From the IMG/VR virus record IMGVR_UViG_2721755710_000007, positions 1-64,000 of that record: a DNA stretch of 64,000 nucleotides, one strand, 5' to 3'. This stretch comes from a virus (lineage: Duplodnaviria; Heunggongvirae; Uroviricota; Caudoviricetes). Below the pieces are notes generated by a model that was not told the origin of the DNA, made no database searches, and worked only from the letters and a program-made list of their open reading frames with translations. The position numbers and the translations under genes are program-made. Shown here one piece after another: positions 221 through 46,260 of this stretch (positions within the stretch are counted from its first letter, which is position 1; the number at the start of each line of letters is the position of its first letter).

Positions 221-1108
221 ATGATCACTTCAGCACAAAACCAATCAATCGAAAATGTATCTATCCCTGACGTCCTGAATGCCGGTATCCCGGCCATTAT
301 CCAGAACATCCGGGCCGCGCAACGCCGCGTTAGTTGTGATGACCTCACAGCGCGTTTTTTTGATAATGCGGTTCAGTCAGCGGAGATGCTTCACGCACAG
401 CTTATTGATGTTTATAACGCAGAAGCTGATAGCCATAACTCCCTGGTAGATGCAGCTGAAAATATGCAGTTGGATCTCGGTCTGAAGGGTAAAGAAATTG
501 AAGAGCTTCAGCTGGAAATTGAACATTTGAAACGCCAGCAACAGGACGCGATCGACGATGCGACGCATGACGCCAACCAGCGTGCTGATAATGCCGAACG
601 TATAAGCATTGAGCTGGAAACAAAACTCAATGAAATGACCGCGATGGTTGAACTGCGGAACTCACAGATTTCAACGCTAAAATCTCAATATAAAGAGATC
701 ATGAAACTTGATCCTTTTAACCTTGAGAAACGCTATAACAAAGCTAAAAGCGAGCGACAGGAACTGCGTAAGCAGGTCGCCGACCTTAACCAACAGCTCA
801 AAAAAACTATTAAAGATGCAAGCGAAGCGCGCGTGGCATTTGCTAATAAAAAAGCAGAGGTTACCGCGCTGGTTAATGAGAATGCCAAATTTGCGACGCT
901 CAAGAAGGAAATGTATGGCATTACTGAGCGCCGTTTCCCTGCAAGCAAACTTCATCCGACGTTAGGGCAAATCTCCTTCTTCCCGCGCCTCCTGGCTTAT
1001 GGGATCTCATCGCCTAAAGAGTTCAATAACGAGCGTCCTTATATCGTTTCTAAGCTGGACTTTGCTTATCAGTTCTGCTGCGACATGGGCTATGCCATTG
1101 ATATCTGA
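221..1108 (+). CDS. hypothetical coiled-coil protein (295 aa)
   Basis: Long ORF with heptad-like charged repeats; no recognisable catalytic motif. Confidence 0.4.
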   Translation: MITSAQNQSIENVSIPDVLNAGIPAIIQNIRAAQRRVSCDDLTARFFDNAVQSAEMLHAQLIDVYNAEADSHNSLVDAAENMQLDLGLKGKEIEELQLEIEHLKRQQQDAIDDATHDANQRADNAERISIELETKLNEMTAMVELRNSQISTLKSQYKEIMKLDPFNLEKRYNKAKSERQELRKQVADLNQQLKKTIKDASEARVAFANKKAEVTALVNENAKFATLKKEMYGITERRFPASKLHPTLGQISFFPRLLAYGISSPKEFNNERPYIVSKLDFAYQFCCDMGYAIDI

Positions 1109-1120
1109 ATCAACGAATGG

Positions 1121-1483
1121 TTGATGCCAAACTTCCAGCCGCTGGCCATTTTCCGCGAGTTCCAGCCGGAAGGTTGGGTAGAGTTCTTCCATGAATTGAT
1201 CTGTAAAGAGATGGAAAGCCGCCGCCCGGAACTGGTCCGCCGTGTCGAGTGGGCGCAAGAGGTTATGTTGGCAGATGCAGAGCTGCCGTTCGAACCGGAA
1301 TTTATTGATGATCTGGCAGCTAAAGGGCTGCATACCCTGTTTGATGTGGTTACCCGCCGTCATGAGCAGTTGGTTGTCGAATTGGGTTTAGAGGAAACAG
1401 CGGCAAGAAGACTTCTCGATGTTTGCTATGCACGTAGCGATGCATGGGAAAAAGAGAACGGCGGCACTATTTACGTTCGCTGA
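1121..1483 (+). CDS. hypothetical protein (120 aa)
   Basis: ORF 13 bp after the previous gene, followed by a terminator hairpin. Confidence 0.4.
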   Translation: MMPNFQPLAIFREFQPEGWVEFFHELICKEMESRRPELVRRVEWAQEVMLADAELPFEPEFIDDLAAKGLHTLFDVVTRRHEQLVVELGLEETAARRLLDVCYARSDAWEKENGGTIYVR

Positions 1484-1503
1484 CAGTTACAGTGTCACTT
1501 TTA

Positions 1504-1536
1504 ATGCTGGTGGAGTGCGCCCACCAGCATTTTTTT
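1504..1536 (+). terminator. rho-independent terminator
   Basis: Inverted repeat atgctggtgg / ccaccagcat followed by a T6 run. Confidence 0.55.
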
Positions 1537-1555
1537 CGTCCAATGAGGAGGGCAT

Positions 1556-2062
1556 TTGAGTATTTTCAATAAACACGCACACCAGGAACGTCCGTATATC
1601 GTCATAGTTGATATTGATGGAACAATATCAGAGGCAACTGAAGACAGACTGCATTTGCTTCCGCCACCAGGTAAAGGTGCATTAACAAAGGACTGGAACG
1701 AGTTTAATCTCGCCTGTGACACCGATACTCCCATCACTCCAGTTATTGATATGGTGCGCCAGTTATTTAACGTTTACACGGTCTGGTTTGTAACCGGGCG
1801 CTGTGAGATCGCAAGGGATAAAACACGAGCCTGGCTGCGGAAGTACGTAACAAACGGGGCTGAGCCTTTGCTATCTATGCGTCCTGCCACCGATGACAGA
1901 AATGACGGCCCAGCAAAGATTGATCTCCTTAAGAAAATTGGTCTAAGTAAAATCGCGTTCGCGCTGGAAGATAAGATTGAAGTGGCGCGTGTTTTCAGGA
2001 GGCACGGCGTGCTTACGTTAATGGTCAGGGAGTATGAAAATGCGCTTCTTCATCAACAATGA
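1556..2062 (+). CDS. HAD-superfamily phosphatase-like protein (168 aa, probable TTG start)
   Basis: N-terminal VIVDIDGT motif typical of HAD phosphatases; GAGGAGG ribosome-binding site upstream. Confidence 0.4.
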   Translation: MSIFNKHAHQERPYIVIVDIDGTISEATEDRLHLLPPPGKGALTKDWNEFNLACDTDTPITPVIDMVRQLFNVYTVWFVTGRCEIARDKTRAWLRKYVTNGAEPLLSMRPATDDRNDGPAKIDLLKKIGLSKIAFALEDKIEVARVFRRHGVLTLMVREYENALLHQQ

Positions 2063-8740: not shown

Positions 8741-9784
8741 GTGAAAGCCATAATTACTCCCTTTGTACAGAAAGAGCTTGGCCTCGCCACGTTCAAAGTG
8801 GATCAGGAGGTCAGAAAGCTGGTGGAGGCTGGCCGTAAATTTATTATGGAGCCGGTGCCGCGTGAGTTAATCGAGCACATGGAAGACGGCCTCGTTGTTA
8901 CCGAGCAAACCATGGCAACAAATGAGGCGTTGCAGCCGTTTTTTAACAGCGATGAACTGTTTCGCCGTATTGGTGGAATTGACGCGCTGGTGGCGTGGTT
9001 GCGTAAGAAAGAGGGTCAATGCCAGGCCGCAGATCGTAGTTGGTGTGACAACCATATTGTCCACGCTGAACGAGACAATAGCGCGGTGTTGTTGTGCTGG
9101 CATCACGATAACCATTATCGGATGCGTGGTTTTAATGAGCTGAAAGAAACGCTGCACAATAATCGCGTTAACTGGATACTGGATGTCGCCCGTCAGGAAA
9201 TGGGCCTTTCAAATAGCCATGATTTAAGTATTCAGGAGCTGTGCTGGTGGGCTTTCATGCGCAACATGATGCACCTGATGCCGGAAGAAGTCTGCCGCAT
9301 ATCAATAAATAAGATGAAGGCTACTCCGCAGGATAGCGGACCTCTGAAAGAGGCGGATATTCGCCCGTATGACGATCGCGCTACAGCATATGTTCAGATG
9401 ATGGAAGAACGCGCCGCGCCGATGCGTGCAAAAGTATGCCCTGTGGATGTTGACTCCGACCCTGGCATGGCGCATTTCAAAATACCAAAACTGCAATCGC
9501 TAAAATTACCTGAGTACATGGACTTTGTTGCTTCCCGTCCATGCTGTGGGTGTGGAGCTGCGGGAGCTGGCGCTCACATTACGCCTCATATCGTTCGTCA
9601 TAGTCGATTATGCGCGCATGACATTTACGCAATTCCTCTGTGCCAGTCATGCCAGCGTGATATTGAGCGTGACCGCGATAATTGGGAGAAGACGCACGGT
9701 AGGTTGGCGATGCATCAACGATTGTTCTTTGATTACGCGCTTGGAGTCGGCGCTATCACAAGTCACTCGTCGAACGTTAGGTAA
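8741..9784 (+). CDS. hypothetical protein, 347 aa (position of P1 pdcA)
   Basis: Long ORF between doc and the late-activator gene; Cys/His-rich C-terminal region. Confidence 0.5.
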
Positions 9785-9785
9785 A

Positions 9786-9802
9786 ATTGCTCTAATGTAT
9801 TG
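9786..9802 (+). promoter_or_regulatory. C1 operator-like site
   Basis: attgctctaatgtattg. Confidence 0.5.
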
Positions 9803-9872
9803 ATATTTATTTAATCTATGGTATTATATTCCACGTTGATTAGTTGACATGGGCTAATCAGTAGGTGACAGG

Positions 9873-43986: not shown

Positions 43987-44003
43987 ATTGCTCTAATCTG
44001 GAG
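43987..44003 (+). promoter_or_regulatory. C1 operator-like site
   Basis: attgctctaatctggag. Confidence 0.45.
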
Positions 44004-44034
44004 TCACCTGGCGTTTTCAGTTTGAGGTCGGAGA

Positions 44035-44279
44035 TGCAATCTGATTTTTTACAGTTAGCGATCGCTTTTGCAGGATATGTTTGTATTGGCTTCTGTGTAT
44101 ACATGATCAGCCGAAAAATGCTTGTCGATATCTACCGCAAAGAACGAGCAGAGGAGATCTTAGTATGGATTTTCTTTGGCGCGGTCTGGCCATTAGGGAT
44201 CATGTTTGCTGCAACATTTCTTCTGATGTGGATATTCACCCTTCCAGGTGATTTCTATAGAAAAAAAGCCAGACATTGA
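44035..44279 (+). CDS. small membrane protein (81 aa from internal Met)
   Basis: Two hydrophobic helices; ORF-track entry 43953-44279 probably over-extended. Confidence 0.4.
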
Positions 44280-44402
44280 TACAATCGTTGCGGGTGCTTG
44301 AGGCTATCTGCTTCAGGCATGACCCGAAAAGCAGATAGAAGAAAGCCCCAGATAACATTACGCGTCCTGCAAGACGCTTAACATTAATCTGAGGCCATAT
44401 CT

Positions 44403-44609
44403 ATGCTTAGCATACGTAGATTAGCCTCTTACCGACCAAAAGGTCAAGGAGAAGCAGGCTATGAAGCAGCAAAAAGCGATGTTAATCGCTCTGATCGTCA
44501 TCTGTCTAACCGTCATTGTGACGGCACTGGTAACGAGGAAAGACCTCTGCGAGGTACGAATCCGAACCGGCCAGACGGAGGTCACTGTCTTCACAGCCTA
44601 CGAATCTGA
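44403..44609 (+). CDS. mok-like overlapping reading frame
   Basis: 68-codon ORF overlapping the hok-like gene in another frame. Confidence 0.4.
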   Translation: MLSIRRLASYRPKGQGEAGYEAAKSDVNRSDRHLSNRHCDGTGNEERPLRGTNPNRPDGGHCLHSLRI

Positions 44610-44616
44610 AAGGTAA
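44461..44616 (+). CDS. hok: Hok/Gef-family membrane toxin (51 aa)
   Basis: MKQQKAMLIALIVICLTVIVTALVTRKDLCEVRIRTGQTEVTVFTAYESER resembles Hok; GC hairpin ggcggggagtgatccccgcc just downstream. Confidence 0.8.
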   Translation: MKQQKAMLIALIVICLTVIVTALVTRKDLCEVRIRTGQTEVTVFTAYESER

Positions 44617-44970
44617 GAGACCTGGCGGGGAGTGATCCCCGCCACTCTTCGTGTGTCTGGTAACCTCAATGCACCCTTTTCTCCCCAATAGTGTAAAACA
44701 CAATGAAGTAGAAGGAGTTATTTCACATCATGCAAAGATTCAGACCATATCTCCCAATAGCCTTCGCGACATGATGACTTTCAGAAATATCTAGCTGTTA
44801 ACAAAATTCCATACTTGCTTTGCTAATACCACCTAGATTATATATGGAAAAATACACCTAAAACTTAAACAAATTATATCCACAACAAACATCCATCTAT
44901 TAGGATTAAAATTAATTTAATAATAAATAATACAACACCGGTTCATTTTCTAACAAACCGGTGGGCACCA

Positions 44971-46041
44971 TTATTGGAATAACTTACTGATTACATTAAA
45001 AACATTAAGGGCGTTACTTGCCACACTAGACATCTTGGCTGAATTTTTTTCGATTGAGTCAAGAACACTTTCGACTTCCGATAAAGTTCTTCTGCTATCT
45101 GCATCTTTTCCTGAGTCTATCGCATCTTTAATTGCAGATATAGCAGACTCTAAATTCTCCTTAAACTCACCTGTCGTCTCATCCTTCAAGAGAAGTTCTA
45201 ACTCTTGTTTAAGTTTTTCCAATGATGCTCTTTTCTCATCAGTTTTACTAATCTTCCCTGAATAACTGACACAAACACATTCTCTTTTATTGCAGACAGG
45301 ACAACCATTTAGATAATAACTTTCAAACGCCTCGCCAAGATCATCATCTTTAAAAATAATCCCCCATAAAGAAAACAACCAAGCATATATATCAGCACAC
45401 TCTTCATGAAGATTTTCTTTGTTGTAATTTTTATCTTCAATTGATTTAGCATAAGCCTCTTGCAACTCACCCAACTCTTCGAATAACCTGGATGAATGAT
45501 AAAACCCACCAAAAGTAGACCAAATGGTTCTATTCGACGGATAGATGTCATTAATCATTCGTGGCGCATAAGGCGGAAATTGCATAGGTTTAATAGCGTT
45601 ATATTTATTGAAAAGCTCATCTTTAATTCCTTTTGCGCTTCTTATTTTCTCTGGCTTTCTGTGTGTTTGAGAACAGGAACAAGGCGCCCCTAAGCAATAA
45701 GGACAGCAACTAGGAAATTTTTTATAAAATGCTTCCTGTGGTTGTATTTCAAGTTTATCACAGATTGCAAAAAGCCAAGACAATGCTTCTATATAGGTAT
45801 TTTTTAATAATTCTTTATCCTGATTACCATCACGAATAAACTCACGTGTTAAATAAGCTGTTTTCCTTGTCAGATAAGAGTACATATACTCAAATGATTT
45901 TTCTTCATTTTTTTTGCTGTAAATACCTACAATAATATTGCTCATATCATTGATACGTAACATGACATTCCTCTTAAATAAGCCAATACTTCCTAGAACC
46001 ATATATGTTTCGACAAAGATTAACGGACATCTTGCCTTCAC
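44971..46041 (-). CDS. hypothetical protein with MazG-like pyrophosphohydrolase motif and two Cys clusters (up to 356 aa)
   Basis: EELGELQEAY...EECADIYAWL (E-x2-E...E-x2-D); CCPYCLGAPCSCS and CPVCNKRECVCV; AT-rich. Confidence 0.4.
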   Translation of the reverse strand: MKARCPLIFVETYMVLGSIGLFKRNVMLRINDMSNIIVGIYSKKNEEKSFEYMYSYLTRKTAYLTREFIRDGNQDKELLKNTYIEALSWLFAICDKLEIQPQEAFYKKFPSCCPYCLGAPCSCSQTHRKPEKIRSAKGIKDELFNKYNAIKPMQFPPYAPRMINDIYPSNRTIWSTFGGFYHSSRLFEELGELQEAYAKSIEDKNYNKENLHEECADIYAWLFSLWGIIFKDDDLGEAFESYYLNGCPVCNKRECVCVSYSGKISKTDEKRASLEKLKQELELLLKDETTGEFKENLESAISAIKDAIDSGKDADSRRTLSEVESVLDSIEKNSAKMSSVASNALNVFNVISKLFQ

Positions 46042-46260
46042 AAACTTTGACGCTACATAAATTTAACCATGTGCATACTAAATATTTAAGGTAGAAAAGT
46101 ATAGGAGTATTTATTAATAGGTAACTGTTAGTTTACACTCACTTCATACCAGAGTATTTACAAGATGTTATTTTACTCTATTCGCTAGGCGGTGGAATGC
46201 GGTTGTATCAAGGGGAGGTAAACCTCCCCCGAAGAAGATTAAAAGTACAAGGGATAACAC

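Follow-up and report, generated by a model that had tools for sequence, protein, structure and literature searches.

The closest described counterparts of the protein reported here are the small MazG-like nucleoside triphosphate (NTP) pyrophosphohydrolases and the dimeric dUTPases. Its gene lies in a stretch of 64,000 nucleotides (IMG/VR record IMGVR_UViG_2721755710_000007, positions 1 to 64,000; hereafter the window) whose source is a P1-like (IncY) phage-plasmid of Escherichia coli, and the protein already bears the superfamily name 'MazG-like family protein' in RefSeq. In the predicted structure it is a single-chain pseudo-dimer of MazG/dimeric-dUTPase-type modules with one predicted active site. 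The gene is carried on an AT-rich cassette, and we consider its product a candidate for a role in phage conflict.

The small MazG-like enzymes used for comparison (Pfam family PF03819; Protein Data Bank (PDB) entries 1vmg SSO3215, 2p06 AF_0060, 2gsc XCC0516, and 2gta YpjD) consist of subunits of about 100 residues that form homo-oligomers with equivalent sites, whereas the window protein contains two fused copies, one of them degenerate, and adds a Cys4 knuckle to each copy as well as a helical domain of 95 residues, both of which are missing from the small enzymes. The pseudo-dimer has the architecture of the dimeric dUTPases (PDB 5myd; 1w2y from Campylobacter jejuni; 2yay from Leishmania major), arrived at by a separate duplication, and in the predicted structure the similarity to these enzymes extends over both halves of the chain. 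Identity to 5myd, an entry titled 'Convergent evolution involving dimeric and trimeric dUTPases in signalling', is 8%, and the dimeric dUTPases, unlike the window protein, have neither Cys knuckles nor a C-terminal bundle. E. coli MazG (3cra) likewise has two MazG-type modules per polypeptide; however, its Foldseek match to the window protein was weak and not significant (E = 4.4), the linkage to mazEF is absent here, and the two proteins differ in which module is active, in the knuckles, and in the C-terminal domain.

Anti-phage enzymes that deplete nucleotides (dCTP deaminase, dGTPase, and AvcD; bioRxiv 10.1101/2021.04.26.441389) resemble the window protein in the proposed removal of nucleotides by a single gene, and some of the MazG-like relatives also carry a cytidine/dCMP deaminase domain. 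They are not homologous to the window protein, however, and the chemistry predicted here is α-β pyrophosphate cleavage rather than deamination or triphosphohydrolysis. Atd1 (PMC10419184), which we liken to the window protein by its description only, is a phage-borne MazG-like pyrophosphatase of phage-host conflict, but it works in the direction opposite to the one favored below, as a counter-defense factor, and neither twin Cys knuckles nor chromosomal TIR or GGDEF fusions have been reported for it. A 2026 preprint predicted MazG-like effectors solely within PUA-HAD systems (PMC12871103). These variants share with the window protein the prediction of a MazG-like phosphoesterase as an NTP-targeting defense effector; PUA-HAD systems are multi-component, with PUA and HAD partners, whereas the window gene is solitary and adjoins no PUA or HAD gene. 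In the DefensePredictor paper, MazG is one of several predicted defense domains of which, according to its authors, none had been experimentally validated (PMC13092281), and the papers on P2/P4 hotspots do not mention MazG. Our literature searches found no paper on a twin-knuckle MazG-like family, and the libraries searched hold no dedicated model for it. Three features appear to be undescribed: the single-chain pseudo-dimer with twin Cys4 knuckles and a variable helical tail, the fusions of the protein to immune domains, and its spread through prophages and phage-plasmids.

Start codon and domain architecture

A preliminary description of the locus placed the gene at 44971..46041. This reading frame exists on the minus strand and spans 356 residues counted from the GTG at 46041, but the start has to be moved, as the true one is most likely the ATG at 45963, which gives a protein of 330 residues. 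A Shine-Dalgarno sequence precedes this ATG (Table 1), nearly all of 24 homologs recovered by a word-based search start at its position or within one residue of it, and the PGAP annotation has the 330-residue form in one record (WP_000944483.1) and a 343-residue form in another.

The same description had recognized an E-x2-E...E-x2-D signature of MazG type, and this assignment was borne out. The family profile matched the MazG-like PDB chains 1vmg (E = 1.1e-4) and 2p06 (E = 1.5e-3), followed by further MazG-like entries, and the window protein itself matched phrog_2245 (NTP-PPase) with E = 4.3e-6. The signature is located in the C-terminal module, where EELGE...EECAD follows the superfamily pattern E-x2-E-x(12-28)-E-x2-D as E163-x2-E166-x21-E188-x2-D191. 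When the window protein and 173 relatives were aligned by a hidden Markov model (174 sequences in all), the residues E162, E163, E166, E188, and D191 were each conserved in 154-158 sequences (about 90%), fusion proteins included; because of this retention, together with the profile match to MazG-like PDB chains, the acidic residues are not a chance run. Structure prediction, which had been named as a check, agreed: an AlphaFold2 model built from 23 sequences had a mean predicted local distance difference test score (pLDDT) of 81 and was all-helical, with the predicted all-α helical-bundle fold of the MazG superfamily. Up to E = 1, no dUTPase family was found among the Pfam matches of the window protein, and scans of it against NCBIfam, Pfam, and PADLOC gave nothing above threshold.

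Absent from the preliminary description were an internal duplication with a degenerate N-terminal copy, the position of the knuckles at the end of each copy, and a variable helical C-terminus. The two halves of the protein match each other by BLASTP (E = 1e-5), and hhalign of the corresponding sub-alignments of the family gave a probability of 94.8% and E = 5e-8 in an alignment that takes in the last helix and the Cys knuckle. At most acidic-ligand positions, the N-terminal module has conserved Arg (R33, R40) and Tyr residues. Residues 236-330 diverge faster than the core; among 106 full-length relatives the mean frequency of the most common residue was 0.25 in this region compared with 0.42-0.46 in the core.

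Two Cys clusters had been described as looking like zinc ribbons. Both are present, with the pattern C-x2-C-x4-C-x-C, but at 11 residues they are too short for classical zinc ribbons and are therefore regarded as knuckles; the AlphaFold2 model shows coil without strands at both sites. The eight Cys residues are invariant in the close family and essentially invariant in the 174 aligned sequences, and the Cys4 knuckles are probably zinc sites.

The AT-rich cassette

When the window was compared by blastn with the locus of the sister phage phi456, homology ended at 44688 and restarted at 46228, and phi456 has 11 bp where the cassette stands. The GC content is 0.31-0.36 over 44600-46200 compared with 0.47-0.53 in the flanks, with hokD/sok on one side and bplB and the tail genes on the other, just as the low-GC setting between hok and the late structural genes had been described. 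Identity of 95-99% to P1, RCS47, SJ46, and many E. coli plasmids applies to the flanks of the cassette only.

Within the cassette, the gene is preceded by an AT-rich leader and followed by an intrinsic-terminator-like hairpin (Table 1). The RNA fold of the leader was not compelling (z = -2.1), and an Rfam scan of the cassette found no riboswitch or small RNA. Upstream of the MazG-like gene, no P1 C1 operator was found with up to three mismatches allowed, and the late-promoter -22 box (AAGTGACTT, from P1 LP23) was absent. The GC-rich hairpin that follows bplB at the upstream edge has a poor U-tract and was not among the sites returned by the terminator scan. Foreign composition, a Shine-Dalgarno sequence and terminator of its own, a filled/empty site polymorphism, and carriage by several unrelated phage backbones mark the cassette as a predicted autonomous mobile accessory ('moron') unit that brings along a leader, ribosome-binding site, and terminator.

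Distribution of close relatives

Copies of the MazG-like gene were found in 18 of 5,426 complete E. coli genomes, all of them plasmid-borne and at least 99.8% identical. Of 679 plasmid records that matched a 1.8-kb query region in whole or in part, 16 carry the gene. In five of these 16 carrier plasmids, the cassette match was in two pieces, and for four of them the annotation places an IS421 transposase at the matched stretch. Inactivation by IS421, which would have hinted at toxicity, was considered and rejected; the gene is intact in the one plasmid inspected (NZ_LR883966.1), and the insertion sequence (IS) separates the 3' end of the gene from hok.

Among IMG/VR records, P2-like phages carry relatives of 76-79% identity between their tail-completion and baseplate genes, and relatives of 54-59% identity adjoin an integrase and lie in a lambdoid-type early region. 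A Providencia relative is located at the end of a P2-like prophage, and the relative in a Pantoea lambdoid prophage (locus L006) occupies the early region, with a methylase on one side and the Ant and Q genes on the other. The sole match in the GenBank phage collection was the 8-kb Vibrio filamentous phage 10N.286.54.E11_PE002A (Tubulavirales, PQ189347.1), where the homolog is in a cargo position. In five viral contigs of IMG/VR, the homolog has 33-35% GC inside loci of 47-55% GC. Read from these placements, close relatives are AT-rich cargo that evidently moves on at least four kinds of temperate phage. Solitary chromosomal relatives were found in Pectobacterium, Pseudomonas, Celerinatantimonas, Aliivibrio, and one further genome, with no phage genes within 8 kb; given these islets, a host-beneficial gene fits better than a phage counter-defense gene.

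Fusions and neighborhoods of distant relatives

When 1.84 billion representative proteins were searched by profile, 978 matched at E ≤ 1e-3 and 99 at E ≤ 1e-30, and nearly all of the latter, short fragments aside, cover the complete three-part protein. The two-module core of about 230 residues also occurs as a stand-alone protein and inside longer proteins. Fusions were examined in all 20 relatives of at least 380 residues among the 173 relatives retrieved. A TIR domain was present in nine of the 20, at the N- or C-terminus and in one case of the CAP12/Pycsar type; cytidine/dCMP deaminase and GGDEF domains were found in four each and Ser/Thr kinase domains in two, and the remaining protein had no other recognizable domain. 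More fusions were found in species-representative genomes of Chloroflexota, Acidobacteriota, Planctomycetota, Nitrospinota, Bacteroidota, Patescibacteria, Burkholderia, and one archaeon.

A PADLOC scan was run on 149 pooled neighboring open reading frames (ORFs), and its matches are reported as association rather than as enrichment over background. They included a cyclase of a cyclic oligonucleotide-based antiphage signaling system (CBASS), a 2TM effector, ThsB, and type II and III methylases, among others. In a Ginsengibacter metagenome-assembled genome (MAG; locus L030, 5349-9304), a CdnE-type cGAS/DncV-like nucleotidyltransferase (CD-NTase) and a Cap15-like effector, together a type I CBASS, lie directly upstream of a gene for the core fused to GGDEF, separated from it by 29 nt, and a 151-residue ORF and a thymidylate-kinase-like gene follow. 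The Cap15-like gene was considered as the effector of the GGDEF cyclase in this locus and rejected, as the ORF upstream encodes a CdnE CD-NTase (E = 2e-113 to 7x4a) of an ordinary CBASS. A TIR protein similar to ThsB/PDC-S66 is encoded immediately upstream of a core+GGDEF gene in Mesorhizobium (L036, 3958-6275) and 1.6 kb downstream of a full-length relative in Aliivibrio (L018, 6947-10518); the two TIR proteins are 41% identical across 131 residues.

In a Phycisphaeraceae MAG (L023, 3618-12357), a relative of 401 residues combines the core with an unknown C-terminal domain, and the genes for a 1,101-residue N6/N4 DNA methylase, the relative, a 1,042-residue ResIII helicase, and a 347-residue ORF follow each other in this order on one strand, a set that looks like a restriction-type or BREX-like operon. 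Further neighborhoods contain DndB and a Dam-type methylase, a SIR2-TPR protein with an integrase, and OLD/AbiEii-type ATPases. A PADLOC match to 'CARF_STK_AAA' was set aside, since no locus could be assigned to it and the protein guessed to be its source (1,267 residues, in locus L027) had no PDB match. Thymidylate-kinase-family genes occur within a few kilobases of relatives in three unrelated phyla (L028, 8153-8779; L030, 8681-9304; L031, 4824-5504); this could reflect a link to pyrimidine metabolism or signaling, or merely housekeeping tmk genes.

In the Pantoea/Pectobacterium clade, whose members are 53-55% identical to the window protein, a second gene is conserved just downstream in the same orientation. 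Its product of about 245 residues has transmembrane (TM) helices at both termini and a helical middle part, with no Pfam or PHROG match, and the relative and this two-TM partner possibly form a two-gene system. The clade of the window protein lacks the partner. Between the membrane proteins encoded downstream in Pseudomonas and in Pectobacterium, homology was not detected.

Proposed function and alternatives

The preliminary description suggested a defense or counter-defense factor. The comparative evidence (carriage as temperate-phage cargo, fusions of immune type, and neighboring defense genes) supports this suggestion, but no PADLOC model matched. We lean, tentatively and with a little less than half of our confidence, toward a nucleotide pyrophosphohydrolase of phage conflict that would benefit the lysogen against other phages; host-side immunity is preferred over counter-defense because some copies stand alone in chromosomes, one clade has a two-TM partner, and relatives are fused to TIR, kinase, and GGDEF domains. 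The C-terminal MazG module would hydrolyze a (deoxy)nucleoside triphosphate ((d)NTP) or a nucleotide-derived molecule needed by the incoming phage, and the variable C-terminal domain and the knuckles may supply regulation or target recognition. Hydrolysis could amount to bulk (d)NTP depletion upon activation, as in dCTP deaminases and dGTPases. It could also be a constitutive and selective 'house-cleaning' of phage-specific non-canonical dNTPs, in which case a sensor would be unnecessary and the host and P1 would be spared.

Several observations weigh against lysogen defense. Expression of the gene in the lysogen is assumed, a promoter scan of the leader (45964..46227) gave no strong sigma-70 site, and read-through of the late operon into the gene across the bplB hairpin, with its weak U-tract, is possible. 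No PADLOC 2.0 model fits the window protein, the sole match being a spurious coiled-coil one to LmuB (E = 0.018), and the Pfam MazG family PF03819 reached 14.5 bits (E = 0.045) with a gathering cut-off of 22 bits, a value exceeded by several relatives (27.1 bits for P0136 and 29.1 bits for P0152). The protein has no recognizable sensor, and nothing comparable to the two-TM partner in Pantoea and Pectobacterium, neither a second gene nor a small ORF, was found in the cassette. The evidence from fusions and neighbors comes mostly from relatives that are about 24-30% identical and may not transfer to the window protein, and the thymidylate-kinase neighbors and deaminase fusions are equally compatible with ordinary pyrimidine metabolism. 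Phage MazG-like proteins are also known as enzymes of nucleotide metabolism. They act in counter-defense as well, Atd1 being an example (review PMC10419184).

As a counter-defense or pro-phage factor, the protein would be made during the phage's own infection or induction and would destroy an immune or stress nucleotide of the host, for example (p)ppGpp, as proposed for Atd1, which has been reported as an anti-defense gene (PMC10419184), or some other alarm signal derived from a nucleotide; the phage-plasmid would thereby evade host immunity. The position of the gene, directly downstream of the late operon and on the same strand, where read-through may occur, agrees with such timing, as does the Pantoea relative in its lambdoid early region between a DNA methylase and Ant/Q. 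We nevertheless regard this explanation as unlikely: the solitary chromosomal relatives have no phage genes close by, the TIR, deaminase, kinase, and GGDEF fusions in bacterial genomes and the two-TM partner are traits of host-side immunity and not of small phage inhibitors, and the gene has its own terminator and a composition foreign to every phage backbone examined. Less likely still is a housekeeping role in the nucleotide pool, for which dimeric dUTPases and T4 gp56 are the models and in which a dUTPase- or dCTPase-like enzyme would exclude uracil or damaged bases from phage DNA or feed dTTP synthesis. Such a role would account for the structural match to dimeric dUTPases, the deaminase fusions, and the thymidylate-kinase neighbors, but the gene is rare and non-syntenic in the plasmid records and E. 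coli genomes counted above, reference P1 does without it, it sits among tail genes in P2-like phages, and its inovirus carrier replicates with host enzymes; moreover, a Pfam dUTPase family match is missing, and TIR, kinase, and GGDEF fusions and a two-TM partner do not belong to such a role.

The protein might also be a non-hydrolytic sensor or switch, whose acidic pocket would bind a nucleotide-Mg2+ complex, or whose knuckles would bind nucleic acid, and whose oligomeric change would control a fused effector in relatives and, in the window protein, a partner or its own C-terminal bundle. The C-x2-C-x4 spacing resembles that of retroviral nucleic-acid-binding knuckles. Consistent with a switch are a core that stays constant while the part fused to it varies among classical effectors and signal generators (TIR, deaminase, kinase, or GGDEF), the two-TM partner in one clade, and the rapid divergence of the C-terminal domain, which resembles that of a specificity domain; yet the five catalytic-type acidic residues are retained as expected of an active enzyme, and the window cassette lacks a partner gene, so we rate a switch as the least probable of these alternatives.

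If the cassette does protect lysogens, MazG-type pyrophosphohydrolysis would be a new chemistry in single-gene anti-phage immunity with an easily tested E. coli/P1 model; there would also be a reason why, in many phyla, the core is found joined to domains of the TIR, deaminase, kinase, and GGDEF types, and the slot between repL and bplB in P1-like phage-plasmids would be a place to seek more conflict genes. P1-like phage-plasmids are spread in livestock and human E. coli. Selective removal of modified dNTPs would mean that 'house-cleaning' enzymes had been repurposed for immunity, and even a dUTPase-like helper function would tell what a family with several hundred representative sequences does. 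A bolder proposal, possible though doubtful, extends lysogen defense to the family as a whole: the twin-knuckle pseudo-dimeric MazG core may be an undescribed and widespread immune module of bacteria and temperate phages. The stand-alone core would destroy phage- or infection-specific nucleotides recognized by its pocket, and other lineages would couple it to TIR NADases, cytidine deaminases, Ser/Thr kinases, GGDEF cyclases, or the two-TM partner. On this proposal, a new family of single-gene defenses built on MazG chemistry would have in the P1-plasmid gene its first E. coli member amenable to experiment.

The repL-bplB interval and neighboring features

The cassette occupies part of the interval between repL (lytic replication) and bplB (tail), which in the window (43998-46227) holds the gene for an 81-residue membrane protein, hokD/sok, and the MazG-like gene. 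In reference P1 the same interval contains rlfA, rlfB, and pmgF; phi456 has almost nothing there, RCS47 has an IS transposase and an unknown protein of 198 residues, and SJ46 has lom and two unknowns. Because its content differs among these elements, we regard it as a hypervariable accessory slot. The homology to P1 stops at 43997 (region 43987-44000) within ATTGCTCTAAT, the initial 11 bases of the P1 C1 operator Op55 (Orlf) that follows repL. With Op55 truncated, the window has lost both the P1 rlf genes and their control by C1. Elsewhere in the window, the consensus of the P1 C1 operator had 11 matches compared with 0.36 expected by chance, and these predicted sites confirm a P1-type immunity circuit in the phage-plasmid.

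Table 1. Coordinates of the features of the MazG-like gene, its cassette, and related loci; positions refer to the window unless a locus is named.
Feature	Coordinates	Strand	Remarks
CDS (coding sequence) of the 330-residue MazG-like protein	44971..45963	-	Stop included; start ATG 45963
Shine-Dalgarno AAGAGG	45970..45975	-	6 nt upstream of ATG 45963; read from sequence
N-terminal MazG-like module	45640..45963	-	Residues 1-108; catalytically degenerate
Cys4 knuckle 1, CPYCLGAPCSC	45673..45705	-	C87, C90, C95, C97
C-terminal MazG-like module	45259..45591	-	Residues 125-235; predicted catalytic; conserved IYPxN motif
Metal-binding signature EELGE-x21-EECAD	45391..45480	-	E162, E163, E166, E188, D191
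Cys4 knuckle 2, CPVCNKRECVC	45271..45303	-	C221, C224, C229, C231
C-terminal helical bundle	44974..45258	-	Residues 236-330; four predicted helices; AlphaFold2, pLDDT 55-80
AT-rich cassette, 1,539 bp	44689..46227	.	blastn of window versus sister phage phi456 locus
AT-rich leader/promoter region, 264 nt	45964..46227	-	
Intrinsic-terminator-like hairpin	44936..44963	-	8 nt past stop codon; 12-bp stem, then T-rich tail TTGTATTATT
GC-rich hairpin after bplB	46212..46230	-	Upstream cassette edge; read from sequence
sok antisense RNA	44300-44466		Rfam RF01794, 91 bits, E = 1.2e-20
hokD CDS	44461-44616		With sok, a complete hok/sok type I toxin-antitoxin locus (44300-44616)
C1 operator matches, examples	2062, 15585, 42222, 57788, 62333		All 11 distant from cassette
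Carrier plasmid with split cassette match, locus L053 (NZ_LR883966.1)	711-1823		
Vibrio inovirus homolog, locus L037	6649-7641		330 residues, 29% identity; cargo position, gene I (G1P) homolog to regulator
Two-TM partner gene	L007 9080-9826; L006 about 9068-9805; L050 5157-5924		

On the bplB side, the cassette is followed by bplB and by genes homologous to P1 pmgG, 21, and 22 (tail sheath). On the other side, hok/sok lies outside the cassette, because phi456 has hok/sok without the MazG-like cassette. Between repL and hok, at 44034-44279, an 81-residue protein with two predicted TM segments is encoded (PGAP WP_032167114.1), for which the annotation gives no family.

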